Source of the DNA: a virus
Lineage: Duplodnaviria > Heunggongvirae > Uroviricota > Caudoviricetes
Virus record (IMG/VR): IMGVR_UViG_2875713109_000001
DNA length: 64,000 bases
Reading direction: 5' to 3' (one strand)
Part shown: in pieces, positions 9,889 through 57,227 of the stretch
How positions within the stretch are numbered: position 1 is the stretch's first letter
Layout: each line of letters opens with the position of its first letter
The notes under the pieces: generated by a model
What the model was told of the DNA's origin: nothing
Seen by the model: the letters and a program-made list of their open reading frames with translations, nothing else
Databases searched by the model: none
Made by a program: the position numbers and the translations under genes

Positions 9889-9905
9889 ATTGCTCTAATC
9901 ATTTT
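9889..9905 (+). promoter_or_regulatory. C1 repressor operator-like site ATTGCTCTAATCATTTT
   Basis: 15/17 match to the remembered P1 C1 operator consensus ATTGCTCTAATAAATTT; 20 bp upstream of ssb. Confidence 0.5.
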
Positions 9906-9924
9906 ATTTTATTAGGTAAGATAA

Positions 9925-10413
9925 GTGGCACAACGCGGTGTAAACAAAGTCATCCTGATTGGTACCCTGGGGCAAGACCCGGAGATCAGGTATATACCAA
10001 ATGGCGGAGCGGTCGGAAGACTAAGCATCGCAACAAATGAATCATGGCGCGACAAGCAAACGGGCCAACAGAAAGAGCAAACAGAATGGCATAGAGTCGT
10101 TTTGTTCGGGAAACTTGCTGAAATTGCGAGTGAGTATTTACGAAAAGGTTCTCAGGTCTACATCGAAGGGAAACTTAAAACCCGTAAGTGGACAGATGAC
10201 GCCGGTGTAGAACGTTACACGACGGAAATTATCGTCAGCCAGGGCGGCACCATGCAAATGATCGGCGCTCGCCGTGACGATTCACAGTCCTCAAATGGCT
10301 GGGGGCAATCGAACCAACCTCAAAACCACCAGCAATACAGTGGTGGCGGTAAACCTCAGAGCAACGCCAATAACGAACCTCCAATGGACTTTGACGACGA
10401 TATTCCGTTTTAG
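9925..10413 (+). CDS. ssb: single-stranded DNA-binding protein
   Basis: N-terminus (M)[24 protein letters not shown]-fold, Gly/Gln-rich linker, acidic tip DFDDDIPF; GTG start with SD AGGTAAG. Confidence 0.95.
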
Positions 10414-10615
10414 AGTTTATGAGTAAAAAACGACTGAAAGAAAAGCGGTGGTCAAGACGCCGACAAAAGCACGAACTCGCAAAAAAACGCCAAAGTTGGC
10501 AATGGCACGCGCTTTTCACGAAAAGAACACCCCGAGATATTGCTTTCGCTGGTGGGAAAACATTCCTGACCCACCTGAAGGCGCAATACATCAGTTTTTA
10601 AGCAGAGAAAAGACT

Positions 10616-11410
10616 ATGACAGCACAAAATACTAAAACAATTCAATACCGCCTGCGTAATGGCCAGAGTGTCGAAGTGACCATCAATAATGATGGTGTAC
10701 CTGGCGAAAAGGTTTCGATCTCTGATCTGGCTATCGAAAAAACCATCATGTGCCACCTTGGCTTTACTGAAGAAGTGAGCAAAAAGCATGGTGTAGCTAT
10801 CTGGCGCACAATGGATACTGGCATGCGCAGATTCATTACTGCTCGTACCCCTGGTATGACCATGATGGACCTCATACAGATTGCGCCGCTGTTTGAGTGT
10901 GAACCTTTGGATGTATTCAGCAATCCAGCTATCTGCCAGCAGTTATATGGTGAGATGAAACTCGCGGTTACCCCCATTGTGCTGCATGAAGGATCGCTTG
11001 CTGGCGTATGGAAAGTAGAGCGAATTTCAAGCTACATGCCATTCCACATCCATGTCAACGGCGTAATCGCAGGTGAAAATCAACCTGTTTCAGTTACAAA
11101 GTCAGACCTCAATCGCGCAATTCTTGAAGCAAGTTGTCGAGTTATCGGCCTGGGCAAACAGTCTTATGTTTCCTTCCCGGCTGGTCCTGAAGGCCCGGCA
11201 GAAATTCTGATTATGGATGCTGATCTGCTCTGGCAAATACAGTTTCTGATTGGCAAAAGCATCATCCGCGCTGAAGAACTCGATCAGTACATTACCTGCA
11301 CGATGACGGATGAAGTCAAAAGTGTGGCTATAGCCAATGCCCGGAACCTGTGTCGTGCTGCATTAACAGAACCGCAAGAAAACATTCCAGAAGAAACAGA
11401 AAGTGACTAA
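10616..11410 (+). CDS. hypothetical protein (264 aa from ATG 10616; frame opens at 10448)
   Basis: Long ORF between ssb and the kinase cassette; no motif recognised; start uncertain. Confidence 0.45.
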   Translation: MTAQNTKTIQYRLRNGQSVEVTINNDGVPGEKVSISDLAIEKTIMCHLGFTEEVSKKHGVAIWRTMDTGMRRFITARTPGMTMMDLIQIAPLFECEPLDVFSNPAICQQLYGEMKLAVTPIVLHEGSLAGVWKVERISSYMPFHIHVNGVIAGENQPVSVTKSDLNRAILEASCRVIGLGKQSYVSFPAGPEGPAEILIMDADLLWQIQFLIGKSIIRAEELDQYITCTMTDEVKSVAIANARNLCRAALTEPQENIPEETESD

Positions 11411-11416
11411 TAAAAA

Positions 11417-11434
11417 CCCCGTCAGTTGGCGGGG
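11417..11434. terminator. hairpin CCCCG-n8-CGGGG downstream of the 10616-11410 ORF
   Basis: 5-bp GC stem flanked by an A-run; terminator function uncertain. Confidence 0.3.
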
Positions 11435-11607
11435 AACTCCACGTCAAATGGCCAATTGTTATGTCAGCTAGCAGTTAAAGCGCCTAGTCATCATCTTTTA
11501 AAGAAGTCTTTTTAACTTACCTAAATTAGTGACACCTCCCGTTTTGCTTGCTATTGTACGCATTCATGAATCTATTCATTAATCTATTCACAATAGTAAT
11601 TAAAACT

Positions 11608-12912
11608 ATGGCTATACATGCAACAACAATCCGTAATTTGCTCAATCAAGGTCCTATGACACCAAGACAATTGGTTGAAAGACTAAGTGTTAGCCAACCA
11701 ACGATATCTAGAGCATTAAGAGATCTTGGTGATGAAATCGTTAGGATCGGAAATGGAAGATCTATTCAATATGCTTTACGAGACTCTTTTAGAGGATTCG
11801 AATCAGTCCCCATTTATCGTATAACTGAAGAGGGGTGTATTTGCGTTCTTGGTACTCTCATTCCGGTGAGGCCAGAAGGCTATGTTATGGTTGAGGAAGG
11901 GAAAAATAACAGGCATAGCGATGGGTTACCTTGGTGGTTATTTGATATGCGTCCACAAGGCTTCCTTGGAAGAGCATATGCATCAGCATATGCTCTTGAA
12001 CTTAACCTTCCCTCAAATCCAGAGCAATGGTCAGATACTGACGTGATCAAAGCCTTACTTAAGCATGGGCATGATGTTGTTGGTAATTTGTTAATTGGAG
12101 AGCAAGCACGCACGCATTTTTTAGAGATGCAGCCTCCTGTTCCTGTTAATCGTGAAAGTGAATATCCTGTATTAGCTTTAGCTGCTGGTGAAGGTGATGT
12201 GCCCGGTTCATCTGCTGGAGGTGAACAACCCAAATTTTGTACTTTCACAGAGCGTGGACATGTATTAGTGAAATTCTCTGCGCCTAACGACACCCCTATA
12301 AGTGAGCGTTGGAGAGATCTCTTGTTTGCTGAACATCTCGCATTAAAAGTTCTGGGGGTAGAAACAGAAGTTTTTGATTATAACGGTCAGAGATTCTTGG
12401 AAATTCCCCGATTTGATCGTGTTGGTCAACTAGGTCGGGTAGGTGTATTCTCACTTCGTGCACTTGATGCAGAATTTGTTGGGAATGCAAGAGCAACATG
12501 GCCCTTGCTGGTTAAAGAGTTGGTAAAAAATAAGTGCGTCCATCCTGATGCGATTATTATAGCAACAAGGCTATGGTCTTTTGGTTTGCTAATAGGCAAT
12601 ACCGATATGCATAATGGTAACCTATCGTTTATTAGTAGCCACGGACGCCCATATCATATTGCTCCAGCCTATGACATGTTACCTATGGGTTTTGCTCCAC
12701 GCTCTGGGGGAGCAATATCTAATGAGCTTAGAAAAACAGCACTACCAGACTTTGTAAGTCGAAAAATATGGGATGAATCTCTTGAATTGGCTGAAAAATT
12801 TTATGCATTGGCCTGTGAGTCCGACAAATTCTCAGCTAACTTTACTCCATGTTTAGAAGCGCTACGCATCCACCTAGATGATTGTAAGATACGCATAGCC
12901 CGCCTGGCATAA
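11608..12912 (+). CDS. HipA-like Ser/Thr kinase with N-terminal HTH domain (E. coli YjjJ-like)
   Basis: HTH TPRQLVERLSVSQPTISRALRDLGD; HipA P-loop-like SSAGGEQPKF; catalytic-loop-like IGNTDMHNGNLSF (D-x-H-x-x-N). AT-rich with frequent AGA/ATA/CTA/TTA codons. Start taken at ATG 11608; track frame opens at TTG 11548. Confidence 0.7.
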   Translation: MAIHATTIRNLLNQGPMTPRQLVERLSVSQPTISRALRDLGDEIVRIGNGRSIQYALRDSFRGFESVPIYRITEEGCICVLGTLIPVRPEGYVMVEEGKNNRHSDGLPWWLFDMRPQGFLGRAYASAYALELNLPSNPEQWSDTDVIKALLKHGHDVVGNLLIGEQARTHFLEMQPPVPVNRESEYPVLALAAGEGDVPGSSAGGEQPKFCTFTERGHVLVKFSAPNDTPISERWRDLLFAEHLALKVLGVETEVFDYNGQRFLEIPRFDRVGQLGRVGVFSLRALDAEFVGNARATWPLLVKELVKNKCVHPDAIIIATRLWSFGLLIGNTDMHNGNLSFISSHGRPYHIAPAYDMLPMGFAPRSGGAISNELRKTALPDFVSRKIWDESLELAEKFYALACESDKFSANFTPCLEALRIHLDDCKIRIARLA

Positions 12913-12917
12913 ACAAC

Positions 12918-31600: not shown

Positions 31601-32440
31601 ATCCTCTTTACGCCTGGCCTTTTCAGCACGTTCAGCACGGGCATCTTCCGCTGCGGCCTTACTCCCTGACTTTCCAATAAAACGACCACGCGCATCGCGT
31701 TGGTTTTGGCTTTTTTGCGCACCGCCTTTTTGATCGAACATTTCGCGAGCGTGTTCGGCTGCTTCGGTCCGTTGTGCCTTTATATCCTCTGGTATAGCCT
31801 TCCTGCGTCGTTTTTTACCCTTTGGTGTAGTTGATTTGGCCTGCTGTTCCTGTTGAGCAATGCCCTCCTGAACTACACGAGAAACGTCCCCTAAATTAAG
31901 CCGTTTCATTGCGTCAACAATAGGGTCTACTGATGGCGCATTGGCCACAAAGTCTGGCCGGGAATTTTCGATTGTTCGATTTAATGCCGACACACTGCGA
32001 GATACTGGGTCAACCGTTGCAACGCGTTCCCCTTTCAAATCACGAGCGAGTTTAACCGTTTCTAACCGCTGTGCTTTAACATCCTCTGTTATTGCCTCTC
32101 TTCGTCTATTTGGGGGATTGTGCGCTGTTGGTGCAGCCTGCTGTGCACGGTTAGTGACTTTGTCCTCCCGTATACGAGAAACGTCCCCTAAATTAAGCCG
32201 TTTTATTGCGTCAACAATAGGGTCCACTGATGGCGCATTGGTCACAAAGTCAGGACGTGAATTTTCGATTGTGCGATTTAATGCCGACACACTGCGAGAG
32301 ACAGGATCAACAGTTGCAACTCGTTCCCCTTTCAAATCTTCAACAGCTTCCCGAATACCTGCAAGCTCTTCCAGCTCTTTCGCGCTGGCGGTTTCAACTG
32401 TCCTTATAACATCGTCAATATTGGCGTTTTTTCTTTCCAT
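28649..32440 (-). CDS. sit: tail tape measure protein with C-terminal lytic transglycosylase domain
   Basis: 1263 aa; SLT motifs AIAATESGG, GALGMFQF, AYNAG; internal tandem duplications. Confidence 0.8.
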   Translation of the reverse strand: MERKNANIDDVIRTVETASAKELEELAGIREAVEDLKGERVATVDPVSRSVSALNRTIENSRPDFVTNAPSVDPIVDAIKRLNLGDVSRIREDKVTNRAQQAAPTAHNPPNRRREAITEDVKAQRLETVKLARDLKGERVATVDPVSRSVSALNRTIENSRPDFVANAPSVDPIVDAMKRLNLGDVSRVVQEGIAQQEQQAKSTTPKGKKRRRKAIPEDIKAQRTEAAEHAREMFDQKGGAQKSQNQRDARGRFIGKSGSKAAAEDARAERAEKARRKEDDERLNAESGLLKKLSKVAEGIGNPSETRAVDALGYAVAGPLWAAGKELGGISKEVGGSLNGARKSIADVIRGNDDNSRRKGFFRRKSQNSADVVQVNTQKRTVQELQEQTSEIKEGNDKILSALDQIAKNTGKKKGGLLSKLFSLLGKGAGGVASLLMGRGMLKKAGALAFGALGAKKLVGMLRGGGKKTIAHEGGDLAARAAGKLGLKAVGKGALRAIPLVGTVAGGIYDAVTGWNDTEAQRRAFGLKSGQDPSFQQKAAYTLANVLDMGGLVSGISSAIGEVLKSLGFEDIGNMLQSFSTESIAQAIDSGITNLETYISNLGDTISTKFEDYTAKIGDAVSAWFSDTSNKLLEKLDAIKDFFTVDNLKQVFSDAIDSAIDFIKNPGKHIKEAAGNIWDGVKNLPGKALDAAVDAVKNTPAAMIVSKIPNPIGEANAKEITPELKAPVNSEANAKEIAPQLKAPVNSEANAKEITPELKAPVNSHQETSDSKTESDAKQTNIVTRVINAALDTAKDSNKTVKETANQIINANAVETGNSALQKIDKAIGQNSSSSSSLNTTGTRSDIQKAADTYNNGRLDVKVGSLGSEGKANLDKLAPYFAELENKYGLPEGTLYAIAATESGGNPYAKSQTGALGMFQFTGIAREETGLAEGESFDPVKSAEAAALLMSKYLKQANGDLNEAITAYNAGFGTINKWKKGTGDLSKENREYAIKVNTHRARYLGGEIYTPGAGAQGGAQYGVRGPLPDNAVIDQSTGLAFTPGDSPFEKGGLVDKIGNAVGVNDLVNKFMNGRGMRREVVQGTLEERARGKGTATAAGNVYVDIPMPVEEARPVASNSSYFDQLGAQMGIDGLFDKLRNSPGMRKNNAPEPASTSKVTTAANDLQQPTGRMQIDGQVISDLGGSGAKPTMQLADNTVSLDGETKRLFAQMTSLLARIEEHTKDSAKGQGTVVKVSTPQPGVMRTVPLSIDDPLMNDYARVD

Positions 32441-32521
32441 GATCTTATCGCCTACCGTTTCGGTTTAAGTTTTTCTTCCAGTTTCTCCAACAGGAAAAAC
32501 GCATAGGATTCAGTAAGCCTT

Positions 32522-33403
32522 TCAGCGTCCTGAATCGGTATACCCCCATACAAAACCAGGTTGGACACTAAGGTCTGATAGCTTTTCAATCCCCACCTGT
32601 GGAATGAAGTCGGTAGCCCGAAAGGGCACCCACAGACGGGTATATGCACCCTCTGTGGACTCCTTTTTATCCTGATTTGGGCATTTATGCGGCGGGAGAC
32701 GAAGACGCATTTCACCTTTATCGATGTAGCACGGTAAACCATGTTCGAGCTTTTCATGAGCCAGTCGGATGTGTGCCGCCAGCTTCATAAATTCAGTATC
32801 AATGGCCATCCGTTTAATCGTTTCATAACGACGCTCAGCCTGATCTTCACGAGTACCGCTAACATCGTTATAAAGCTCACACTGATAAGCGAATTCCCAA
32901 AAACGCAAATCAACGATCGCTTCTTTGAATTCCGCGTCGTCTTCAGGTGGCAATGCTGCACGGCGCATCTCCAGCATTTCCATTGCCCAACCATCAAGCG
33001 GCACGATACGCCATTGATAAGGTACTCCCTCTACAGACACCTCAATATCGTCAATGAAAGGTTCCACTTCCAGGACCTGGATATCTTCAGCCAGAGCATT
33101 CATATCGCAATCGTAATAATGCTCTTTACCGCAATGTTTACAGGTGTAGGTGAATGTCTCGACCGGTGTTTCACGGGAGCCGGTAAATATCCACCATAAC
33201 GCGGTAATCCGGTCCTGCGCCGTCCATGTCAGGGGATCATGTTTCGCGGGTTCAGCCAGCAAGGCTTTTAAATACGCCGTTGTCTGTTGTTCTTGTTCCT
33301 CCGGTGTTATCGAGTTGAAACGCATCGCATCAGCAATATTTGGCTGACGGAACTGGATCAATTCAGTTGGCCGCGATGGTAGCGGGAAAAGGGGTAAAAG
33401 CAT
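32522..33403 (-). CDS. tail/baseplate protein (P1 PmgB-like by synteny)
   Basis: 293 aa, ATG start. Confidence 0.4.
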   Translation of the reverse strand: MLLPLFPLPSRPTELIQFRQPNIADAMRFNSITPEEQEQQTTAYLKALLAEPAKHDPLTWTAQDRITALWWIFTGSRETPVETFTYTCKHCGKEHYYDCDMNALAEDIQVLEVEPFIDDIEVSVEGVPYQWRIVPLDGWAMEMLEMRRAALPPEDDAEFKEAIVDLRFWEFAYQCELYNDVSGTREDQAERRYETIKRMAIDTEFMKLAAHIRLAHEKLEHGLPCYIDKGEMRLRLPPHKCPNQDKKESTEGAYTRLWVPFRATDFIPQVGIEKLSDLSVQPGFVWGYTDSGR

Positions 33404-33417
33404 CCTTGCTCCTTAAT

Positions 33418-34029
33418 TCAAAGAGAAAAACTAAAGCCCAGAAGGGAAGCCAAAGAACTTGAGGATTGGTTAAACGTGCTGTGCAATGCGAAGGTCATTG
33501 GGAATGACTTAAATTCCGTAACCTGATCCCGCGCATAGGTGACATCGCCGGTAGTGACCGGGAATACCGTCATCTCATTTTCCAGTTTGGTTAAGCCGGA
33601 AGACAGCAACCGATAAATACGCACATTGAGCAAATATTTAGACGGTATATTCCCGGTACCGTCCGGATTGATCACCCGACTTTTTGCCGTCTTAAACCAG
33701 TCTAAAACGAGGCCATCAACGGTATCCCTGACCATCATTGTTATCTGCCCAGGCGAACGCTCCGTTGGTTGAAGGATATTCCCTCCGCCGATTTTAATCG
33801 TTTCATATTCGATGCTGTAATCGTGGTAGGTAATGTCTTTGGCAAAGAAGTCTGCCCCCTCCAGTCCATCAACTTCGACAGAGAACTGCCATCCTTGCGC
33901 GAACAGCATTTTGTTCATGATGATTGACGTCAGCTTACCAACTTCCCGCTCACCAACGCCGGAGCCAAATAATGTCGTCGTTAATGCCGAAGATACATAA
34001 GACTTTACTGAAGCAACATTAAGCCCCAT
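33418..34029 (-). CDS. tail structural protein
   Basis: 203 aa, ATG start, in tail gene array. Confidence 0.4.
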   Translation of the reverse strand: MGLNVASVKSYVSSALTTTLFGSGVGEREVGKLTSIIMNKMLFAQGWQFSVEVDGLEGADFFAKDITYHDYSIEYETIKIGGGNILQPTERSPGQITMMVRDTVDGLVLDWFKTAKSRVINPDGTGNIPSKYLLNVRIYRLLSSGLTKLENEMTVFPVTTGDVTYARDQVTEFKSFPMTFALHSTFNQSSSSLASLLGFSFSL

Positions 34030-34039
34030 ATCAGCCCCC

Positions 34040-34630
<591 letters not shown>

Positions 34631-34686
34631 TTAACAGATTCTACGAGTTGTCATTTGTGACAGTATGCTCGCAATCGTAGTGATTA

Positions 34687-35226
34687 CTACCACCAACTGC
34701 TAGCTTTCTTCTCTCTAGCTTTTCCTTCGCTTTGCAGTAAATCTTTACTTCCTGTAGAAATATTTCTATTTGCATCAGCCTCAGACTGAATTACATCTGT
34801 CTTAGCTGCTCTCTCCTTCAACTCCTGCTCTATAAAATCGTTTTCTCGCTGGACACGAGCCGCTTTTGCTTGCAGTTCGAGTTTCATGCTTTCGAGTTGC
34901 AGCTTGCGAAGCTCATCCTCATAAGCTTGATCTCGCTTCTTGTCATTTGCTAGCTCGGCTTCTCGTTTCGCTCTACGTTCATTTTCTGCAGCAACACGCT
35001 GTTTTTCGCGTGCAGCAGCGGCAGATGCTGCTTTTTCTCTTCTAATACGTTCAGCTTGTGCTTGTTGGCGAATAAGTTCTTTTCTGGCATCCTCAGCTTG
35101 CTGCTCTTTAGCTCGCCCTTCATTTTCCGCTTGAGCAATAGCAGCAATTTGACTTTGCAACGAGTTAGCCAAGGCAGTGCCTACACTAAACGTAGAAAAG
35201 ATTAGAAATAAAATAATTTTATTCAT
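34687..35226 (-). CDS. secreted charged coiled-coil protein (signal peptide MNKIILFLIFSTFSVGTALA)
   Basis: Cleavable-type signal peptide then E/R/K/Q/A-rich repeats; AT-rich DNA. Confidence 0.55.
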   Translation of the reverse strand: MNKIILFLIFSTFSVGTALANSLQSQIAAIAQAENEGRAKEQQAEDARKELIRQQAQAERIRREKAASAAAAREKQRVAAENERRAKREAELANDKKRDQAYEDELRKLQLESMKLELQAKAARVQRENDFIEQELKERAAKTDVIQSEADANRNISTGSKDLLQSEGKAREKKASSWW

Positions 35227-35229
35227 AAA

Positions 35230-35751
35230 TTATTTCTTTTCTGGACAAGTAGCATTTGGCTGAATTCGAGTTTCATTATCTTTAGTTGAAATAAGCACAG
35301 CAAGCCCCGTTGTAAACTGGCATGCTTTACCAACTTGAGTTGAAGTGAACACCTTAGTTCCTTCTTTATAAGTCAGTGAAACACCTTCAACAATTGTTTT
35401 ATCACTAACCAAAGAACCAGCCGCTGCACCAAGAGCCGCACCACCAGTACCGCCAGCTACAGCACCCAGTGTCGATGTGCCTTTAACATTATAACCGGCA
35501 ACGCCCCCAGCAACAGCTCCCAGTACCGCACCAAATGTCTGTGCCGCTTCTTTATTAGCTTTATTATCAACTTTCACTTTAGCTGGAAGCACAGAGATAA
35601 TATTGACTGTCTTTGTTTCCTGCTTCGAATTCAATTGAGCGGTATCATAAACATCGGCAGCATAATCAGCACCGCTAGATTGACACCCAGAAAGAAGAAT
35701 TGCAGATACAACAAGAGCGCATAAAGTATACTTTTTAGACATAAGAATCAT
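35230..35751 (-). CDS. lipoprotein with glycine-zipper segment (SlyB-like)
   Basis: Lipobox LLSGC; GAVLGAVAGGVAGY...GAVAGGTGGAALGAAAGS; AT-rich. Confidence 0.6.
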   Translation of the reverse strand: MILMSKKYTLCALVVSAILLSGCQSSGADYAADVYDTAQLNSKQETKTVNIISVLPAKVKVDNKANKEAAQTFGAVLGAVAGGVAGYNVKGTSTLGAVAGGTGGAALGAAAGSLVSDKTIVEGVSLTYKEGTKVFTSTQVGKACQFTTGLAVLISTKDNETRIQPNATCPEKK

Positions 35752-36032
35752 CCCAGAAAAACAAAAACCGGCGAGAAGTTACCACGAGAACGGAAAGTAA
35801 ACAAGAATACTCCCATTGACTTATATCAAATAATCAACTTTTTATAAGCTATCCCTAACTTATTGTGTATAGCTGAAAAGTCAGAGATAAGTTCACCATC
35901 TGCATTATTTCTTAAGTTAATAGTTTATTGCTAACTTAATTTATGTATCGACTATTGATATCCATCTTAAAGTAACAATATCCCTCTGCATTATTTTTCA
36001 TCACAAATAATACATCTATTGCACTACGCTCA

Positions 36033-36049
36033 CCTGCTCTAATAAATTT
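36033..36049 (+). promoter_or_regulatory. C1 operator-like site (Op51-like) CCTGCTCTAATAAATTT
   Basis: 15/17 match to remembered C1 consensus; just upstream of the immI promoter. Confidence 0.5.
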
Positions 36050-36087
36050 GTATTTTTAAGTCGCGAATGCTATCTTTTCGCATCATA

Positions 36088-36116
36088 TTGACCTTTTAAT
36101 CGTTCAGGCTTATAGT
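36088..36116 (+). promoter_or_regulatory. sigma70 promoter TTGACC-17 bp-TATAGT for the c4-icd-ant operon
   Basis: Near-consensus -35 and -10 with 17-bp spacer. Confidence 0.5.
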
Positions 36117-36229
36117 TTCGCCGTCGTAGCAAATTCTGCGACCAGGTTTGACAGCCTGAATGATTGTGCGGACAACCGCAGATTTCCGATATTGCGGTAT
36201 TTTTGTGTCCGTTAAACCGCGTTACGCCC

Positions 36230-36340
36230 AAATTATGGTGGGGCGTGATGGGGAGGCTTCGGCCTGCTGGTTTCACAATCGCCAGTCTGTCAACCCTGTC
36301 ACGTCCTGCCACCTGTTTGACAGCGGGTAGCAGGTTGTTA
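36230..36340 (+). ncRNA. c4: c4-like antisense repressor RNA region (approximate)
   Basis: Leader between promoter and icd holds hairpin-prone GC segments and TTTGACAGC boxes (~36148, ~36315) with a partial complement CTGTCAAC (~36288). Confidence 0.35.
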
Positions 36341-36363
36341 AACCTGATTGTGAGGCCGTAACT

Positions 36364-36585
36364 ATGGTTAATGCCAATCCTTGCGCACGCCCAGAATTCA
36401 TCTGGCGTTTCTATTCCTGTAAAAAACACCACTATCACTTCGTTATCGCAGCAACTGAAGACGAAGCACGCTCTCAATTGCCTGATGGCCCCTGCATTTT
36501 TACTGCCCGTTTTTCAACTAACTCGCGCAATTCACTTAGTTACTGGAGCCTCCCCTTCTCTGCCGACGTTCAGGGGGGTTTATGA
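36364..36585 (+). CDS. icd: Icd-like small protein
   Basis: 73 aa, ATG with SD GAGG; stop overlaps ant start (ATGA). Confidence 0.6.
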   Translation: MVNANPCARPEFIWRFYSCKKHHYHFVIAATEDEARSQLPDGPCIFTARFSTNSRNSLSYWSLPFSADVQGGL

Positions 36586-37616
36586 AAACACCTCTCGTCA
36601 CCCGTAATGAAATAGCCGAAGCGATCGCCTTGCATACTGCCTGTATGCCGACACGGGAGATCCCCGGCGCAATTGCTAACTATTTCATGATAACCAGACG
36701 TTTTTATACCCGAACAGATAAGGCTGTGATCAACAGGCTACTGATAGCCGAGATCAGGGATTATTTGATTGAACAAGGACGTCTACGTTACGCAACAGTG
36801 GCAGCAGAAATGAGAAAGGAGGCACATAGAATGACCGGTAATAATTTAAATGTTGAAAAACCAGCACCTGTTGCTTCAGCTACGCCAGCACCAGCCCTGA
36901 ATGTCATCCCCAACACCGGAGACACAATCGACAGCCAAACATTGTTGAAGATGGTCAATGAGGCACGGAAATTATGTAGCGAAAAACCAGTTCGCAACAA
37001 TGATTTCATTGCCAGAGTTAAGGATGAGCTTGAAGGAGAAACCTACGAAATTTTCGTAGGTCAAAAAAACGGCGCAGAAATAGATATTATAACCATGACC
37101 TACAAACAAGCCCTGCGAGTTGCCGCGCGCGAGTCAAAAGCGGTCCGCCGTTCGCTGATCGACAAACTGGAAGAATTGCAGCAGGCAAACTCCCCTACCC
37201 CATCGATCCCCCAAACATTACCAGAAGCTCTACGCCTGGCTGCCGAGTTGGCAGAACAGAAAATGCAGTTGGAACAACAGCTGGTGGCCGCAGCCCCTAA
37301 AGTCGATTTTGCCGACCGGGTATCAGTGGCCAATGGAATCCTGATCGGGAACTTTGCAAAGGTCGTTGGACTTAAGCAAAACGCCCTTTTCTCATGGTTG
37401 CGCCAGAACGGCATTCTCATGGCTTTTGGTGCGCGCAAAAACGTACCGCGCCAACAGTACATCAACGCCGGGTATTTCACAGTGAAAGAAGTGGTGCTGG
37501 ATGATGAAAATGGCTACCAGATACGGCTGACGCCCCAATTAACGGGTAAAGGCCAGCAGTGGTTAACTCGCAAGCTACTTGATGCTGGTTTGTTAAAACC
37601 AGTAGCAATAGGTTAA
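36582..37616 (+). CDS. ant1: antirepressor Ant
   Basis: 344 aa; C-terminal antirepressor-type region shared with KilA (IPQTLPEALRLAAELAEQK...GKGQQWL). Confidence 0.7.
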   Translation: MKTPLVTRNEIAEAIALHTACMPTREIPGAIANYFMITRRFYTRTDKAVINRLLIAEIRDYLIEQGRLRYATVAAEMRKEAHRMTGNNLNVEKPAPVASATPAPALNVIPNTGDTIDSQTLLKMVNEARKLCSEKPVRNNDFIARVKDELEGETYEIFVGQKNGAEIDIITMTYKQALRVAARESKAVRRSLIDKLEELQQANSPTPSIPQTLPEALRLAAELAEQKMQLEQQLVAAAPKVDFADRVSVANGILIGNFAKVVGLKQNALFSWLRQNGILMAFGARKNVPRQQYINAGYFTVKEVVLDDENGYQIRLTPQLTGKGQQWLTRKLLDAGLLKPVAIG

Positions 37617-37694
37617 CAAAAGAAAAAAACCTGCCAGCAAACTGGCAGGTTTCTGAGCAGATCGTCCAACCCGATCTGGATCGAGTCAGAAAAA

Positions 37695-37711
37695 TTTGCT
37701 CTAATAAATTT
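37695..37711 (+). promoter_or_regulatory. C1 operator-like site (Op53-like) TTTGCTCTAATAAATTT
   Basis: 16/17 match; 70 bp upstream of kilA. Confidence 0.55.
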
Positions 37712-37780
37712 CGTTTTCTAAGTGCAAAGAATCACCATTTCGAGCTGGTGATTGAAGGTTGATGCAAATTTGGAGAAAAA

Positions 37781-38581
37781 ATGCAACAAACATTCAATGC
37801 GGATATGAATATATCAAACCTTCATCAAAATGTCGATCCTTCAACCACTCTGCCTGTTATTTGTGGTGTTGAAATTACGACCGACCGCGCTGGCCGTTAC
37901 AACCTTAATGCTCTACACAGAGCGAGCGGACTCGGTGCCCATAAAGCGCCAGCTCAATGGCTAAGAACGCTGTCAGCCAAACAGCTCATTGAAGAGCTTG
38001 AAAAAGAAACTATGCAGAATTGCATAGTTTCGTTCGAAGGCCGTGGCGGCGGCACTTTTGCACATGAATTGCTCGCAGTGGAGTACGCAGGTTGGATTTC
38101 TCCCGCGTTTCGGCTGAAGGTAAACCAGACATTTATCGACTATCGAGCTGGAAGATTACAACCTGCTATTCCGCAGAGCCTCCCAGAAGCTCTCCGTTTG
38201 GCTGCTGACCTGGCAGAGCAAAAGCAACGGCTGGAGCAAAAAATGCTGATGGATGCACCTAAAGTCGAATTCGCCGAACGCGTTGCTACCGCCAGCGGGG
38301 TTCTAATCGGCAACTATGCCAAAGTGCTCGGCCTGGGCCAAAACTATCTCTTCACCTGGTTGCGTGATAACGGAATTCTGATCGCAACCGGTGAACGCAG
38401 GAACGTCCCCAAACAAGAATACATATCCCGTGGGTATTTCACCCTTAAAGAAACCGTGATCGATACAAGCAATGGAAGCAGGATTTCTTTCACGACTCGT
38501 ATAACCGGCAAAGGTCAGCAGTGGCTGATGAAGCGATTGCTTGATGCTGGTGTGCTGGTACCTGTCGCGGCAACGCGCTAA
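37781..38581 (+). CDS. kilA: KilA (KilA-N domain plus antirepressor-type C-terminal domain)
   Basis: 266 aa; N-terminal NLNALHRASGLGAHKAPAQWLRT; C-terminus paralogous to Ant. Confidence 0.75.
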   Translation: MQQTFNADMNISNLHQNVDPSTTLPVICGVEITTDRAGRYNLNALHRASGLGAHKAPAQWLRTLSAKQLIEELEKETMQNCIVSFEGRGGGTFAHELLAVEYAGWISPAFRLKVNQTFIDYRAGRLQPAIPQSLPEALRLAADLAEQKQRLEQKMLMDAPKVEFAERVATASGVLIGNYAKVLGLGQNYLFTWLRDNGILIATGERRNVPKQEYISRGYFTLKETVIDTSNGSRISFTTRITGKGQQWLMKRLLDAGVLVPVAATR

Positions 38582-38610
38582 CAGACGTAGTAAGAACCAC
38601 CAGCATTGTA

Positions 38611-39456
38611 ATGCTGGCTAAAGTCACTTTCCTGAGCTGTATAACGATGAGCGATTTTACTTTTTCTGGCTATGAATTGGCTTGCTTTGTAACACACTCC
38701 GGTCTATCCCGTAGCGCCGGGCATATCCTGTCGCAATGTGCAAATCTCGCGGCAACAACCAGTGAATACTTCATTCACAAGCCTCACCGCTTGATCGCGG
38801 CAGAAACTGGTTATAGCCAATCAACCGTCGTTCGTGCATTCCGTGAAGCTGTAAACAAAGGAATCCTGTCTGTAGAGATTGTTATCGGCGATCACCGTGA
38901 ACGTCGCGCTAACCTGTACCGGTTTACACCATCCTTTTTGGCCTACGCACAACAAGCCAAAAATGCGCTGATTGAAAGCAAATTAAAGATCTCTTCAGCC
39001 GCAACCAAGGTTAAAGCTGTTCTCGCTAAGACATTGGCTTTATTTAATTTTTTATCCACACCCCCATGTCAAAATGATACCCCCTCCCCCTGTCAGGATG
39101 ACGTGGCAATAAAGAATAAGAAGTCACAAGTTAAAAAAACAAAAAGATCAGTTTCCGGCGGTGCCGGAACGACCAGACTCAAAAAATTGACTTCATGGAT
39201 CGCTGAGGCAAAAGCAAAGGCTGACAATCTGCGGTTATCCAAAAAACGCGCTCAAAAACATGAGTTCAAGCAGAAAGTAGAGGCGGCAGCGCGGAAATAT
39301 GCTTACCTGAAGAACAAGCGTTCTCCTGATATTGACGGGGTATCAAACTTCGATAATTTGCCGCATTGCATGACGGTAAACGAAGCTCTTAATGCGGTTT
39401 TAGCCAAAAATAAAGATAACGAACAATGGGGTATACCGGCAGGATTCAGAGGGTAA
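38611..39456 (+). CDS. repL: lytic replication protein RepL-like
   Basis: 281 aa directly after kilA; alternative ATG at 38647. Confidence 0.6.
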   Translation: MLAKVTFLSCITMSDFTFSGYELACFVTHSGLSRSAGHILSQCANLAATTSEYFIHKPHRLIAAETGYSQSTVVRAFREAVNKGILSVEIVIGDHRERRANLYRFTPSFLAYAQQAKNALIESKLKISSAATKVKAVLAKTLALFNFLSTPPCQNDTPSPCQDDVAIKNKKSQVKKTKRSVSGGAGTTRLKKLTSWIAEAKAKADNLRLSKKRAQKHEFKQKVEAAARKYAYLKNKRSPDIDGVSNFDNLPHCMTVNEALNAVLAKNKDNEQWGIPAGFRG

Positions 39457-39490
39457 TGAATTGTTCTAATTATAACCATGCATACTTTCA

Positions 39491-39527
39491 ACGCCTCTAG
39501 TTTGCCATGAGGCAAACTCATAGGCGT
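39491..39527. terminator. nested hairpin ACGCCT..AGTTTGCC-atga-GGCAAACT..AGGCGT after repL
   Basis: 8-bp inner plus 6-bp outer stem; no clear T-run. Confidence 0.4.
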
Positions 39528-39624
39528 CCTGGTAAGAGGGCACTGTTGCCAAAACTGGACGTCCCATTATTGCAATTAATAAACAACTAACGGACAATTC
39601 TACCTAACAATAAGTGGAGTTAAC

Positions 39625-40329
39625 ATGTTGAACCGAAGAACATTTAATGTATTCTGCGATGAATCCTGTCACCTACTAAATGATCATAATAAAGTCATGG
39701 TATTGGGTGCGCTTTGGTGCCCTGGCACTATCACAAAAAAAATTGCTAGAGACATCAAGGAATTAAAATTAAAACACAATCTAAAACCTGATTTCGAAAT
39801 CAAGTGGACTAAAGTATCTGCGTCCAAGGTTGAATTTTACTTAGATGTCGTAGATTACTTCTTCAGCAACCCAGCATTGCGCTTTAGAGGTGTTGTTGTT
39901 CCTGATAAAGAGCAACTGGACCATGCTCGATTCCATCAAGATCATAATACTTTCTATTATAAGATGTTTTTTTATGTCTTAAAAAACATAATAGAAAGTA
40001 ACAACACATACAATATCTACCTAGATATAAAAGATACTTTAGGTATTGAAAAAATTGAGAAATTAAGAGGAGTTCTTCACAATGATCGCTATGATTACAA
40101 TCATGAGTCGATAAACAGAATTCAACATATACGATCTCATGAAGTGCAACAATTGCAGCTAACGGATCTTTTCATTGGTGCGTTAGGCTACGTTCATCGA
40201 GGAATGAATAGCAACGCGGGAAAAATCCAAGTCATAAACAGGATAAAATCACATACAAACAGGGATTTACTAAAAAGCACTCTTCCAACAGAAAGTAAAT
40301 TTAATATTTTCGTGTGGGAGGCTCGCTGA
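39625..40329 (+). CDS. cassette gene A: unknown protein with N-terminal FCDES motif, possibly DUF3800-like nuclease fold
   Basis: 234 aa; ATG with SD GGAG; motifs NVFCDESCH and QLQLTDLFIGALG; ~35% GC with rare codons. Confidence 0.65.
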   Translation: MLNRRTFNVFCDESCHLLNDHNKVMVLGALWCPGTITKKIARDIKELKLKHNLKPDFEIKWTKVSASKVEFYLDVVDYFFSNPALRFRGVVVPDKEQLDHARFHQDHNTFYYKMFFYVLKNIIESNNTYNIYLDIKDTLGIEKIEKLRGVLHNDRYDYNHESINRIQHIRSHEVQQLQLTDLFIGALGYVHRGMNSNAGKIQVINRIKSHTNRDLLKSTLPTESKFNIFVWEAR

Positions 40330-40793
40330 TGCTTCAAATGCCAGATTTATTGTACTTCAATGGAAGTTGGCAAGAGTATATAGACGATGTATATTATGTT
40401 GTCAGAGAAGACATTTTAATCTCTAATATAACGTTTAAGGGTCTCCCTGTTCGGTTACGTTATTCACCGGAATATGATGGGAAAGAGTTCGGATTTTGGC
40501 ATTTAGTATCAGAGGGAAAAATAGAAGAAGAACGAATACCTGATCTTGAACGGTGTAAGCGGATCCGCTGGATCGCGCATATGATAAGGAATTATAACCA
40601 TTCCGATATATCATGTTGGTCTGAAAGACGAGGACCAACTGAAGAATGGGTAATCTGGAACGAGTGTGAAAACTACGTTGTTGTGCTATCCGCACGTAGA
40701 GACTATTGGCTTCTTAAAACAGCCTATGTTGTAACCTATAACAGTAAAATCAGAACACTCAAACAAAGCAGAAAAAGAGCGCTTGGGACATAA
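40329..40793 (+). CDS. cassette gene B: unknown Trp/Tyr-rich 154-aa protein, translationally coupled to gene A
   Basis: ATG overlaps gene A stop (TGATG) with strong SD GGGAGG 8 nt upstream; track frame opens at GTG 40314. Confidence 0.6.
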   Translation: MLQMPDLLYFNGSWQEYIDDVYYVVREDILISNITFKGLPVRLRYSPEYDGKEFGFWHLVSEGKIEEERIPDLERCKRIRWIAHMIRNYNHSDISCWSERRGPTEEWVIWNECENYVVVLSARRDYWLLKTAYVVTYNSKIRTLKQSRKRALGT

Positions 40794-40801
40794 AAAAGCT
40801 G

Positions 40802-40835
40802 AACCCGACACATATTGCTATGTATCGGGTTCGAT
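40802..40835 (+). terminator. hairpin AACCCGACACATA-ttgc-TATGTATCGGGTT after cassette
   Basis: 13-bp stem with one mismatch. Confidence 0.4.
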
Positions 40836-50670: not shown

Positions 50671-51063
50671 TTATTCTACGCTTTCGATAAGAAGACCATG
50701 TTCATAACATTTAAGCTCATCGCCTTCGTACAGGAATTGGTATCCAATACCACCATTTTCATGGACATTAGGGAATAACTCATAACTCACTGAAGAGCAA
50801 ATCACACCAATGCAGCGATCAACGCCTTCTCGTCCTTCAGTGCTGAAAAAATCCTCTTCGGTAAGAACATGAGTACATTGCTCATCAGCATAGGTCGGAA
50901 ATACATGCTCGATGCAATCCGGGTGTTTTAAACCAAGCTGATCGGCAAGCTCGAAAGCATGACGGTATTGTTCAGATCCTGGCTTGCCAACAGTGATGTG
51001 CTCAATTTTGTAGATTGAAGTCGCTTTGTTGATAGTTTTCTTTACTGTTACTTTATCAGACAT
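50671..51063 (-). CDS. hypothetical protein
   Basis: 130 aa, ATG start. Confidence 0.4.
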   Translation of the reverse strand: MSDKVTVKKTINKATSIYKIEHITVGKPGSEQYRHAFELADQLGLKHPDCIEHVFPTYADEQCTHVLTEEDFFSTEGREGVDRCIGVICSSVSYELFPNVHENGGIGYQFLYEGDELKCYEHGLLIESVE

Positions 51064-51074
51064 AAAAATCCCTT

Positions 51075-51407
51075 TTAGTTACCTCTGATAGCGCGGTTGT
51101 AATCATTAACGTTGCGATTCTTCCTGTTAATCCCCATCAGCATCGTTTCTGTATCGAGGATATACGCTGGCAGATCATCAAAATATTCACTGCTAAACTC
51201 TGGCATCCTGCACATAAATGCACTTTTGGGGGCAGGGTGGTTAACCTTTGTCGGCGTCGGCGTTAAATTCGGTGATCGACTGCCGGAGCAACCGCTGAGT
51301 GTCAGCAGGAATGCGCTGGCGAACATTACCCGCCGCAACCAGTTGTTTCTGAACTTCAGCTTTTCGTTCCATTTGCCTGTCAGCATATTTGGCTTGTTCT
51401 GATTCAT
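51075..51407 (-). CDS. Pro-rich lipoprotein, candidate o-spanin (Rz1-like) overlapping the 3' end of the upstream gene
   Basis: Lipobox LTLSGC then SGSRSPNLTPTPTKVNHPAP; candidate ATGs at 51407 (SD AGGAAG), 51386, 51326. Confidence 0.45.
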   Translation of the reverse strand: MNQNKPNMLTGKWNEKLKFRNNWLRRVMFASAFLLTLSGCSGSRSPNLTPTPTKVNHPAPKSAFMCRMPEFSSEYFDDLPAYILDTETMLMGINRKNRNVNDYNRAIRGN

Positions 51408-51663
51408 TTTTCACTTCCTGGCTGTGAAAATGTTGCTCTGCTTTGTTCATCGTCTCAATGGTCTGGTTAAGATCCATTATTGACTTATCACGTTCCTTAA
51501 CAGCCTGATCAAGACTGCCAATTTTCTCCATGGCTTGCTTTAGCTGATGACGTTCCCATGCAAACCCAGCACCAACAAGTGTGCAAATCAGAACAAGAAC
51601 ACCAGTAGCAGCAAGTTTCTCCTTCAAAGACAAAGCTGTTTTTAACGTAGAAAAGAATGACAT
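51241..51663 (-). CDS. membrane-anchored coiled-coil protein, candidate i-spanin (Rz-like)
   Basis: ATG at 51663 with SD AGGAGGAAG; TM AATGVLVLICTLVGAGFAW then Q/E/K-rich coiled coil. Confidence 0.5.
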   Translation of the reverse strand: MSFFSTLKTALSLKEKLAATGVLVLICTLVGAGFAWERHQLKQAMEKIGSLDQAVKERDKSIMDLNQTIETMNKAEQHFHSQEVKNESEQAKYADRQMERKAEVQKQLVAAGNVRQRIPADTQRLLRQSITEFNADADKG

Positions 51664-51702
51664 GTCTTCCTCCTGAAGAAAAATTATCAATGAAGTCCTT
51701 TG

Positions 51703-52491
51703 TTACTGTGCCGCTTTGTTTAATTCATCAAGAACAGAATCAGGAACCAAAGCGGCAACTGCGCTGGCTGTGCTGACCTTATTTGCTGATGCTTCCGCAA
51801 GCGCGGTACCGATAGCATGGTTATAAGCAGTTATGGCTACGTTGGCGCTTTCATTCGCTCGTTCATACTGCTGTTGTAACGCAGTTGTGGGCGCTGTTGT
51901 CTGGTTGAAAACAACCCCAAACTGTTCAGTTGCTACTTTCAGAGATTCAATTTGCTCTTCTGTTAGTGCTGGTGGGGGAGTGGCAGTGCCGCCGCCTGAA
52001 CCAGAGCCTGACGAGCTTCCTGAGCCAGTGTTAAGGGTCTGGTTAATCTCCCCCATAGCAGCGACTAAACTTGATGTATTAAGCGCGTTAACAGCGTCCT
52101 CAAGCGATTTAGTAATATTCACATCACCAATGGCAATAGAGATCGGCAGTTCTGAAACTTCTCGCTCATTAGCACGGCAGTAAACATCCCAACCAATATC
52201 GAGTTGAAGCAGCATTGACAGATCTGCATAACCAGCCAACAGGTCCGCGTGCTTAGTTGCCAGTTCTCCAATGTTCGTTAAGCCAGTTGTGGTTGTTCTG
52301 ATCGTTGAAACATAGCTGGTAATAGTGTCGGGATAGACAATTGTATCCAGAATTAATCCGGTCAATTCTTCTGCAAGCAGTTTTGCTGTGTTAGCACTGT
52401 TTCGTGCCGATGTTATGGCACCAGGTGTTTTCATCCCACCGGCGGCGGCCAATTTTTTATATGCGGATAACTGGTAGTCTTTTTCCAGCAT
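51703..52491 (-). CDS. hypothetical protein with Ser/Gly linker
   Basis: ATG at 52491 with SD AGGAGAT; track frame opens at 52548. Confidence 0.45.
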   Translation of the reverse strand: MLEKDYQLSAYKKLAAAGGMKTPGAITSARNSANTAKLLAEELTGLILDTIVYPDTITSYVSTIRTTTTGLTNIGELATKHADLLAGYADLSMLLQLDIGWDVYCRANEREVSELPISIAIGDVNITKSLEDAVNALNTSSLVAAMGEINQTLNTGSGSSSGSGSGGGTATPPPALTEEQIESLKVATEQFGVVFNQTTAPTTALQQQYERANESANVAITAYNHAIGTALAEASANKVSTASAVAALVPDSVLDELNKAAQ

Positions 52492-52499
52492 GATATCTC

Positions 52500-52784
52500 C
52501 TAACTTACCTGAACCAGGCCGTCTCCGGACGCTACGGTAGATCCGCATGAAACAGGGTCACCAACGCATACGATCCCTTTACCATTGACGGTAAACCATG
52601 CCCTGGTTGATATAGCTTGCCCACCGTGCGTACTGTTTCCATCGGTATGCTGTGCATATTGCTTACCATCAACTAACACTTCGACTCCGTTGACTTTAAG
52701 TAGTGGTTCACTCTCTACAGGAGGCCTGGATGGGAATCCTCCGTGCCCCGAACAAATGCTGTCTTTTGTTGCAATACTTGCCAC
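52500..52784 (-). CDS. small Gly/Cys/His-containing protein, possibly PAAR-like
   Basis: GTG start with SD GGTGA; no internal Met; TVNGKGIVCVGDPVSCG segment. Confidence 0.3.
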   Translation of the reverse strand: MASIATKDSICSGHGGFPSRPPVESEPLLKVNGVEVLVDGKQYAQHTDGNSTHGGQAISTRAWFTVNGKGIVCVGDPVSCGSTVASGDGLVQVS

Positions 52785-52864
52785 GTCATCACCAATTATT
52801 TGCTCTGGTTTTCGTTATTTTAACTTAGGTTACTTGTGGTCTACATGGTGTTAACTATTAAATA

Positions 52865-52881
52865 ATTGCTCTAATAAATAT
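52865..52881 (+). promoter_or_regulatory. C1 operator-like site ATTGCTCTAATAAATAT
   Basis: 16/17 match; upstream of the rdgC-dmt operon. Confidence 0.5.
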
Positions 52882-52952
52882 TGTTTTTTATGTCGTGTTT
52901 TCGGTACCATTCAGCCATCGCCCTTCAATGGGTATTTGTTTGGAGTCGTCAG

Positions 52953-53237
52953 ATGCAGATGGAGCTAATAAGCCGCAAAGAGTTCGATAGCCGTGTAACC
53001 AGCGGTGAACTCGACAACTTGCAGGCTATCAAGGTGAAAGAAGGCTTTTGCCTCATTGGGAATCAGAGCGGAACAAATCGCGTTTTTATGCTTCGCCGTA
53101 CGGATTTGAAGCCATTTGTCTGGAAGAACGAAATTGGTCCCAGCTCATACGCTCAAACTAGGGGGTGCCTCAACCTGGCCTTTTTCTACAAAAACGAGCT
53201 TTCTGTGGTTGATATTCAAGGGTTACAACATGTTTAA
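52953..53237 (+). CDS. small hypothetical protein upstream of rdgC-like gene
   Basis: ATG 52953 with SD GGAG; track frame opens at 52881. Confidence 0.35.
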
Positions 53238-54135
53238 GCACTGGAAAAACATTACTATTTTTAAACTTTCTCGTGAGGCGGATCTGACCGACTTGGAAGA
53301 TAAAAAGAAAATGATCCTTTTCACGCCATGCGGTAGTCAGGATATGGCCAAGTTCGGTTTTGTATCTCCATTTGGTGATAATTCCGAAGTTATCGCTATG
53401 CATGGAAATGGTTTTATCCTTGTTGAAGCAAAGCGCGAAACAAAAATTCTTCCCCCGCCGGTTATCCAGCGAGCTATTCAAGAAAAAATTGAAAAACTCG
53501 AGCAAGAACAAGCGCGTAAACTGAAGAAAACAGAGAAGGACTCCCTGAAAGACGAAGTTCTGCATTCTCTTCTGCCACGGGCTTTTTCAAAGTTCTCTGT
53601 TATCCAGGCGATCTACGACGGTTCAACTAAACGTATCTATATCAATGCCAGCGCGCGGCAGGCAGAGGATATGCTCGCGCTTATGCGTAAATCTCTGGGT
53701 TCTCTTCCTGTTGTTCCCCTAAGTGTTGAAAATCCCATTGAATTAACGCTGACCGACTGGGTACGTGATGGTAGTGCTCCACAGGGATTTCAAATGGGGG
53801 ATGCGGCAGAACTTAAGGCAGTGCTTGAGGATGGCGGTATTGCCCGAGTGAAAAAGCAGGACTTGGGAAGTGATGAAATATCCACACACCTGGAAGCTGG
53901 CAAGCTCGTCACTAAGTTGGCACTCGACTGGCAGAACCGCATTAAATTTACACTGGACCATAACTTCAGCCTTACCAGCGTCAAATTTGCGGATGAATTG
54001 CTTGAGCAGAACGCTGATATTGATAGTGAAGATGTTGCGCAGCGACTGGACGCAGATTTCTTCCTGTTGACCAGTGAAATTTCGTGCCTGGTTGATGCTC
54101 TGGTAAATGCCCTTGGTGGAGAGGCTAAGCAGTGA
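53230..54135 (+). CDS. RdgC-like recombination-associated protein
   Basis: N-terminus [20 protein letters not shown]...[19 protein letters not shown] resembles E. coli RdgC; ATG overlaps upstream stop. Confidence 0.75.
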
Positions 54136-56396
54136 AAGAGCTGTGCTATGGATCTGTTTGCAGTGGAATTGAAGCCGCGAGTATTGCCTGGGAACCGTTG
54201 GGTATGCGTCCGGCGTGGTTTGCTGAAATCGAGCCTTTTCCATCTGCCGTTCTTGCGCACCGCTGGCCCCATGTCGCCAACCTTGGCGACATGACAAAAC
54301 TTGCCAAAAAAGTCCTGGCTGGGGAAATCGAATCCCCTGATGTGCTCGTCGGGGGAACACCTTGTCAGGCATTCAGTATCGCTGGATTACGTGGTGGGCT
54401 TGATGATGAGCGTGGCGCGCTAACTTTAAAGTATGTGGAGCTTGCAAATGCAATTGACGACAAACGGGCTGAGTCATTTCTCAAACCAGCCGTTATCGTC
54501 TGGGAAAATGTCCCAGGAGTCTTGTCATCGGCAGATAACGCCTTCGGATGTTTCCTTGCCGGATTGGCTGGAGAAGATGCGCCATTTGAACCAGGTGATC
54601 GACCTGAATCAGGAAAAAGTAACGCGTTCTGGCGGTGGGATGGCAAAACCGGTTGCCATGCTCCAAAGTGGCCGCAGTGTGGTTGTATTTATGGACCGCA
54701 GCGAAAGGTGGCCTGGAGAATCCTTGATGCCCAATACTTCGGAGTGGCACAACGACGCCGACGCGTGTTTGTTGTCGCAAGTGCTCGAACAGACCTCGAT
54801 CCCGCAACGGTACTTTTTGAGTTCGAAGGCGTGCGCCGGGATATTGCGCCGAGCCGAAAAAAGAAGGAAATCGCTTCCGCCATTATTGCAAATGGCGCTG
54901 CAATCAGTGGCGAAAGCCTAAATCCATGCCTACATGCTGACATGCCACCCGGTATGAAATCGACGAAAGCCGTAAACGCTTTCAGGATGGCAGCATTTGG
55001 GGAATATATTGACGATGAAACCGCATCGACAGTAAAGGCAAGAGATTTTAAAGATGCCACTGACCTTGCCGTTTTTAGCAGCACAGGAGCAGCTTTTTGG
55101 TCAGAAGGGCATGGTACATTGCGGGCACGTGAGCAAGAAAGCCATGAGCATCTTGTTACATTGGCTTTTCCTGAGCGTATGAGCGGTACACAACATGCTG
55201 CAACTAAGAATACTTCACCATCTCTAATGGCTAAAAATCCAACAGCTGTTTGCTATGAAGTAAGAAACGCAGAAGTAGCTGTCCGCCGTCTTACCCCTGT
55301 CGAATGTGAAAGGCTGCAAGGTTTTCCTGATGGGCATACGTTGATCCCGACGGAAAAGCGTAAAAAAGTTAGTTCAGATGAACTGGCATATCTTCGCAAT
55401 CACTATCCAGATTTAAGCGAAGAAGAGGCCGTGATGCTTGCAGCTGACGGACCGCGTTACAAAGCGATCGGCAATAGTATGGCAATACCAGTAATGCGCT
55501 GGATTGGCGATCGGATTACTAAGGCCGTATGTCGGCAGAAAGAAGGAAGTGAAACAAAAGAGCGAAAAGTTAAACCAGCGGCAGAATTCGAACGGTCCAT
55601 ATTCAAATGGGCTGGTGGAAAATTTGGTGTTCTGGAACAAATCTTTCGCTATTTGCCAGAAGGGAAGCGCCTGATTGAACCTTTCGTTGGTGGCGGAGCT
55701 GTCTTCATGAATGCCGGATACCAGGAAAATCTGCTAAATGATGTGAATGCTGACCTGATTAACTTTTACAAGACTCTGCAACGCGAGGCGCATTCACTTA
55801 TCACTCTGGCACATCGTTTTTTCCTGGACTACAACACCCAGGAGGGATACTTGGCAGTACGGAATGCGTTTAACAAACAAGTCTATGATGATTTACATCG
55901 CGCAGCGGCGTTTTTGTTCCTGAACCGACATTGTTTTAACGGATTGACGCGTTACAACCAGGCCGGTGAGTTCAATGTCGGTTATGGGAAGTATAAAACT
56001 CCGTATTTCCCATTACAGGAGATGGAAGCCTTCCTCGGTGCGGAAGGGCGGTCTGAGTTTGTATGCGGTGATTTTGCAGCGGTGATTGAAGCTGCCGGAG
56101 AAGGAGATGTCATCTTTTGCGATCCGCCGTATGAACCGCTCCCCAATACAGAGGGGTTCACGAACTATTCCGGTCATGACTTTAAGTTTGAAGAGCAAAA
56201 ACGCCTGGTGTCTCTGTTGACGGATGCTCATCGTCGAGGTGCAAAGGTTCTCATTACTAACAGTGGCGCGCCAAACATCAGAGAGCTTTATCATGACAGT
56301 GGCTTCAGAGTGGAACCTCTTTTTGCCAGACGTTCTGTGTCTTGTAAGGGGGACACTCGAGGTGTAGCTCATGACGTTTTGGGTATATTGCTCTAA
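54132..56396 (+). CDS. dmt: bifunctional DNA methyltransferase: N-terminal C5-cytosine (Dcm-like) + C-terminal N6-adenine (Dam-like)
   Basis: 754 aa; [11 protein letters not shown] and VIVWENVPG (C5 MTase); [13 protein letters not shown]...[12 protein letters not shown] and FCDPPYEP (Dam-like); GTG start with SD GGAGG. Confidence 0.9.
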
Positions 56397-56403
56397 TAAA
56401 TTA
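56387..56403 (+). promoter_or_regulatory. C1 operator-like site ATTGCTCTAATAAATTA overlapping the dmt stop codon
   Basis: 16/17 match; encodes the last codons of dmt. Confidence 0.5.
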
Positions 56404-56577
56404 ATTAGTGTAATATCGCCTCAATGAATCGTGATTTATAGAGCGATTTAGCTGTTAGCCGCGACAGGCGCGGCGGTAAGCATGGCTGGGCCTAGTCCTC
56501 CCAGACAAACCACCGAGTTGCCAGGTTGACCATGCGCCTAAGTGGCAACGCCGAAGTGCGTTACGAGCTTCCAGTTT

Positions 56578-57145: not shown

Positions 57146-57147
57146 AT

Positions 57148-57223: not shown

Positions 57224-57227
57224 GCAC

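Follow-up and report, generated by a model that had tools for sequence, protein, structure and literature searches.

In phage P1, the C1 repressor occludes early promoters by binding at asymmetric sites; Lxc (Bof) strengthens this binding, and Coi and Ant1/2 inactivate C1. The operator designated Op72ab controls ban. The biology of these operators was reportedly worked out by Schuster, Sternberg and Yarmolinsky. C1 resembles CI of lambda-type phages in that one repressor made by the prophage shuts off the lytic promoters by occluding them. Whereas lambda CI acts at a small cluster of symmetric dimer sites in a single switch region, P1 carries 22 C1 operators dispersed around its genome, each an asymmetric 17-mer, with the published consensus ATTGCTCTAATAAATTT (PMC8546580). 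P1-like plasmid prophages attract interest because they can carry resistance genes (PMC8546580). Here we analyzed a 64,000-nucleotide (nt) stretch of viral DNA (IMG/VR record IMGVR_UViG_2875713109_000001, hereafter “the window”), which by its sequence covers roughly two thirds of a Punavirus plasmid prophage of the P1 type. The close matches to the C1 consensus in this window are almost certainly the C1 repressor operators of the prophage.

To locate operators, the 17-base-pair (bp) consensus ATTGCTCTAATAAATTT was used as the query and the window was scanned on both strands with mismatch limits. A first-pass annotation had listed five 17-mers with 15 or 16 of 17 identities to a P1 C1 operator consensus. 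Its motif is the same as the published one (PMC8546580), and all five sites were recovered in place and in the gene contexts it had assigned (ssb, immI, kilA-repL, the rdgC/hrdC-dmt operon, and the end of dmt ahead of the tRNA genes). That annotation had proposed to be judged by whether the motif is more frequent than random expectation, and it is: five matches with at most two mismatches were found where 0.02 were expected, all on the + strand, and none of 100 dinucleotide-preserving shuffles reached five matches at the same limit. Allowing three mismatches gave seven matches (0.33 expected), the extra two being at 6039 (+) and 56398 (−). A position-weight matrix (PWM) built from seven P1 C1 sites was also run over the window. 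Six window sites, comprising the five above and the match at 56398, scored 19.4 to 27.4 bits, and all else scored 14.8 bits or less.

The reference for comparison was the P1 record GenBank AF234172, in which C1 operators are protein_bind features given as “phage repressor C1”. The P1 annotation was inspected across nearly all of the homologous span, ∼11.1–76.3 kb, the uncovered ∼11.1–15.8 kb lying inside darB. Each site in the window aligns base for base with an annotated C1 protein_bind feature, and the inspected span of P1 holds no annotated C1 operators beyond seven half-sites at six loci (Ossb, Oc4, OrepL, Orlf, Odmt and Obanab). The window sites are like those of P1 in orientation and in position relative to genes and promoter hexamers. 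The −35 and −10 hexamers that the operators overlap or abut, those of P1ssb/P2ssb, P1c4/P2c4, PkilA, Pdmt and P1ban/P2ban, are unchanged relative to P1. Note that the promoters themselves rest on the P1 annotation. The first-pass annotation took its five sites to map the repression network, and this holds for five of the seven annotated half-sites in the span; Op72b and Op55/Orlf had been overlooked. The remainder of the 22 P1 sites, including those around c1, fall outside the window. For estimates of conservation, we used ∼200 IMG/VR relatives. Relatives of Dmt are encoded at 80 IMG/VR loci.

The ortholog of Op21/Ossb is at 9889–9905 on the + strand (ATTGCTCTAATCATTTT, 15/17). It is located directly after the −10 of P2ssb and over the −35 of P1ssb, 19 nt upstream of the GTG start of ssb. 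Relative to P1, T12 is replaced by C and A14 by T, and this allele is in the minority, being present at two of 48 related IMG/VR loci. The ortholog of Op53/OrepL (37695–37711, +; TTTGCTCTAATAAATTT, 16/17) is identical to P1 and covers the −10 of PkilA (P53), the promoter of kilA-repL; of the 40 related loci with a gap-free alignment, 38 have the same sequence. The ortholog of Op68/Odmt (52865–52881, +; ATTGCTCTAATAAATAT, 16/17) is also identical to P1 and adjoins the −35 of Pdmt, the promoter for uhr-hrdC(rdgC-like)-dmt.

The ortholog of Op51/Oc4 (36033–36049, +; CCTGCTCTAATAAATTT, 15/17) shares bases with the −35 of P2c4 (P51a), a promoter of the c4-icd-ant operon in immI. Its first two bases are CC, where P1 has AA and P7 has TC (the P7 operator is TCTGCTCTAATAAATTT); they differ from P1 because P1 homology begins within the operator. 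Downstream, Rfam models matched the C4 antisense RNA at 36110–36162 (68.4 bits) and the a1b1 target element at 36231–36316 (55.2 bits), and by these two matches the immI region is intact. P1 homology begins inside or at the left edge of both Op51 (36028–36034) and Op68 (52860–52864), and these operator-promoter units therefore lie at mosaic junctions. Upstream of Op51 the window is of the P7/RCS47 type, with a lipoprotein gene where P1 carries sim.

The homolog of Op55/Orlf (39460–39476, +; ATTGTTCTAATTATAAC) is much weaker, with a PWM score of 14.4 bits. It is located 3 nt past the repL stop codon, upstream of PrlfA. This promoter is unchanged relative to P1, and the operator lies ∼95 nt upstream of its −35, without overlap. 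Position 5, in the conserved core, is T rather than the C of P1, and Op55 of P1 is itself weak (19.7 bits). Among the related loci in the kilA set, only 13 span this position. With so few loci spanning it, Op55 may well be dispensable or in decay.

The operator at the end of dmt is bivalent. The dmt open reading frame extends from 54132 to 56396, and its TAA stop codon (56394–56396) forms positions 8–10 of the Op72a/Obana ortholog (56387–56403, +; ATTGCTCTAATAAATTA, 16/17), as in P1, so that the overlap with the stop codon reported by the first-pass annotation is borne out. Op72a contains the −35 of P1ban (56388–56393) and the −10 of P2ban (56397–56402). The Op72b/Obanb ortholog (56398–56414, −; ATTACACTAATTAATTT, three mismatches, 22.6 bits) is its inverted partner; the two share 6 bp, and Op72b extends into the −10 of P1ban (56411–56416). 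The two inverted 17-mers are thus offset by 11 bp over the ban promoters, with ban downstream on the same strand, and the arrangement of bivalent operator, dmt stop codon and downstream ban operon is common to P1 and the window. In AF234172, Obanab carries the annotation “controls expression of ban”. Op72ab was present at the dmt stop codon in 75 of the 80 loci with Dmt relatives; in the other five, the dmt homologs are more divergent or end differently, finishing in a terminator.

One base of Op72ab differs from P1. At 56403, in the overlap of the two half-sites (position 17 of Op72a and position 12 of Op72b), T is replaced by A, and all four ban promoter hexamers are spared. The A allele was found in none of the 75 IMG/VR relatives, and of 478 matching E. 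coli records, NZ_AP027786.1 alone is 100% identical across the 141 nt surrounding Op72ab. Because natural P1 operators vary at both positions (position 12 is T in Op21 and Op55, and position 17 is C in Op55), this rare change is expected to be neutral.

Three parts of the window used as megablast queries matched the Escherichia phages P1, P7 and RCS47, as well as further Punavirus records, at 96–99% identity; for P1, P7 and RCS47 the figure is about 98%. Enterobacteriaceae plasmid prophages of the P1 type, P7 and RCS47 among them, have the operator set and module order of the window, and the operators of the P7/RCS47-type prophages differ from those of the window by point differences only. The nearest complete record is the E. 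coli plasmid NZ_AP027786.1 (95.8 kb), with identities of 99.9% over window positions 1–24000 and 99.8% over 1–3351. Over the equivalent span it is ∼2.3 kb longer than the window, and due to this length difference at 99.8–99.9% identity it is, by sequence comparison, a near-clone and not an exact match. This plasmid encodes a 283-amino-acid “phage repressor protein C1” that is identical to P1 C1.100 at 281 of 283 positions, and it has more operator-like sites around c1 and near ref, as in P1. No Pfam family matched C1. Since the repressor of the near-clone is nearly that of P1, the operator specificity of the window's own element should be that of P1. At 60972–63503 of NZ_AP027786.1, an IS4-like ISVsa5 element interrupts a terminase gene. 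As in P1, this gene neighbours pacB and c1, and by its position it is pacA. The near-clone is probably a packaging-defective prophage.

Assignment of the sites was based on motif enrichment, one-to-one orthology, intact promoter geometry and the ∼99%-identical C1 in NZ_AP027786.1. In a lysogen, C1 would be bound at each asymmetric 17-bp site and, because the operators overlap or abut the −35 and −10 hexamers of sigma-70 early promoters, would keep RNA polymerase off. Genes silenced in this way would be ssb (Op21), immI c4-icd-ant (Op51), kilA-repL for lytic replication (Op53), rlfA-rlfB (Op55, a weak site), uhr-hrdC-dmt (Op68) and the ban operon (Op72ab), where the two inverted 17-mers would cover both ban promoters. 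That C1 binds and represses here, that Lxc, Coi and Ant modulate it, and that transcripts read through into the tRNA genes and ban is presumed from the literature and annotation of P1. By alignment, the five motifs first listed are long-known C1 operators annotated in AF234172, and nothing in them is new. They have little import beyond correct annotation as P1 immunity operators. The early-gene repression layout is intact, however, so that P1 annotation can be transferred with confidence to this prophage.

Transcription from the ban promoters would proceed through a leader, tRNA-Asn, tRNA-Thr, an SPFH gene and a third tRNA gene to ban and dbn. The leader comprises the ∼650 nt between Op72ab, with P1ban and P2ban, and tRNA-Asn. 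The genes for tRNA-Asn (GTT) and tRNA-Thr (TGT) occupy 57070–57223 on the + strand, with tRNA-Thr starting at 57148. Next come plp and upl on the opposite strand, followed by the SPFH/Band_7 gene (58173–59000, 275 amino acids), which stands in place of tciA-tciB-tciC in the P1 ban operon. This gene is also present in the ban operon of RCS47 and of several “P1” plasmid records, and would likewise be under Op72ab control. The third tRNA gene (59028–59103, +; CAT anticodon), annotated in P1 as trnI (tRNA-Ile2), is just upstream of ban (59384–60754, +), which encodes a DnaB-like replicative helicase with DnaB and DnaB_C domains. The dbn gene follows ban in the same operon.

The first-pass annotation had suggested that the region of tRNAs and noncoding RNA is under C1 control. 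In support, the tRNA genes lie between Obanab and ban on the same strand as both, and on the P1 annotation C1 control of this region is the accepted layout and no new inference. In classical P1 genetics, bac-1 operator/promoter mutations at Op72 reportedly make ban constitutive, so that transcripts from the ban promoter would reach ban. A literature search brought up no primary paper about Op72 or about the ban operon. How far the suggestion holds depends on read-through, because a canonical intrinsic terminator precedes the tRNA genes.

Several observations weigh against the reading of the sites as working C1 operators, or against its full extent. One is that the hairpin at 56577–56603 (+) is a strong candidate for a terminator between the ban promoters and the tRNA genes. 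It consists of a GC-rich stem of 7–8 bp closed by a UUCG loop and followed by a T7 run (GCCCATC-TTCG-GGTGGGC, then T7), with a folding energy of −12.8 kcal/mol and z = −3.5. It is located ∼185 nt after the predicted P1ban start, is the same in P1 save for the length of the T run, and is invariant in 74 of 75 relatives. A second observation is that in 56300–57300 no sigma-70 site reached the threshold of a generic promoter scan, and as a result the ban promoters rest on P1 annotation.

The tRNAs might then be largely independent of C1, if the terminator stops most ban-promoter transcripts as a ∼185-nt leader and the tRNAs use an unrecognised downstream promoter. In keeping with this, phage D6 (MF356679, locus 2490–3140) has in common with the window the module spanning the terminator hairpin, tRNA-Asn and tRNA-Thr, and no P1-type C1 operator of at least 11 bits was found there with the PWM in a 6.3-kb locus. 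By this comparison the tRNA module appears to have moved between regulatory contexts. On the other hand, Obanab is annotated as controlling ban, which is beyond the terminator and the tRNAs, and the P1 record annotates no promoter between. The scan that missed the ban promoters also revealed no sigma-70-like site within 56300–57300 that could serve as the downstream promoter. Furthermore, no terminator was found between the dmt stop codon and the ban promoters, and any transcription continuing out of the dmt operon would therefore likewise be subject to C1, through Op68. We consider C1-independent tRNAs unlikely, though this is the alternative that survives best.

The other observations that weigh against working operators concern present function. 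The c1 gene is outside the window. Changes from P1 at positions 12 and 14 of Op21, at the centre of Op72ab and at position 5 of Op55 may affect affinity. The mean minor-allele fraction was 0.008 for Op72ab versus 0.034 for its flanks and 0.003 versus 0.012 for Op53, but 0.035 versus 0.021 for Op21. On these values the operators do not appear clearly more conserved than their flanks and lend little independent support; the comparison is uninformative because the relatives are too similar. It could be argued from this that the 17-mers are inherited sequence whose repressor has been lost or altered, reflecting nothing beyond ∼98% identity to P1, and the insertion in the terminase gene of NZ_AP027786.1 may mark a decaying prophage. 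However, the near-clone encodes an intact C1 with further operator-like sites nearby, and, by established P1 biology, C1 repression is required for the maintenance of a plasmid prophage with kilA, repL and ant, and the element in the window would require it too. Loss of function at these sites is accordingly regarded as very improbable, and functional C1 operators are preferred.

Chance occurrence of an AT-rich word, which would suffice for the three-mismatch match at 6039 (0.33 expected), is refuted for the five closer matches by the shuffle statistics, and these matches are moreover all on one strand, all at promoters and all orthologous to annotated operators. The match at 6039–6055 (ATTGCCCTAATGTATTT, 14/17, 14.8 bits) was considered as an eighth operator and rejected. 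It covers approximately codons 19–24 of darB on the opposite strand, is identical but unannotated in P1, and is probably due to chance. Weak PWM matches at 58163 (−), 12258 (−) and 31250 scored 13 bits or less and were also set aside, the corresponding P1 regions having no annotated operator.

The terminator also marks the 3′ end of what the P1 record calls the “dicF-like region”. The record gives the label only, and papers using the term in the searched literature are not about P1. Assuming a start ∼7 nt after the −10 of P1ban, the leader RNA would span ∼56423–56603. Tentatively, this C1-repressed RNA of ∼185 nt, ending at the terminator, could be an induction-specific small RNA (sRNA) or an attenuator gating the tRNAs and ban, although we would not expect this to be the case. 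The covariance model for DicF (RF00039; mature sRNA of 52–53 nt) gave no matches with E ≤ 1 in 56380–57300; the K-12 dicF locus scores 76.7 bits with the same model. A true DicF gene in the leader was therefore rejected: the mature body is absent, and a shorter, different hairpin is there instead. The label nevertheless has a basis, since window positions 56471–56552 are ∼80% identical to the ydfC-dicB intergenic sequence of the K-12 Qin prophage immediately 5′ of mature DicF. Like the leader, the DicF locus of Qin (RF00039) ends in a Rho-independent terminator.

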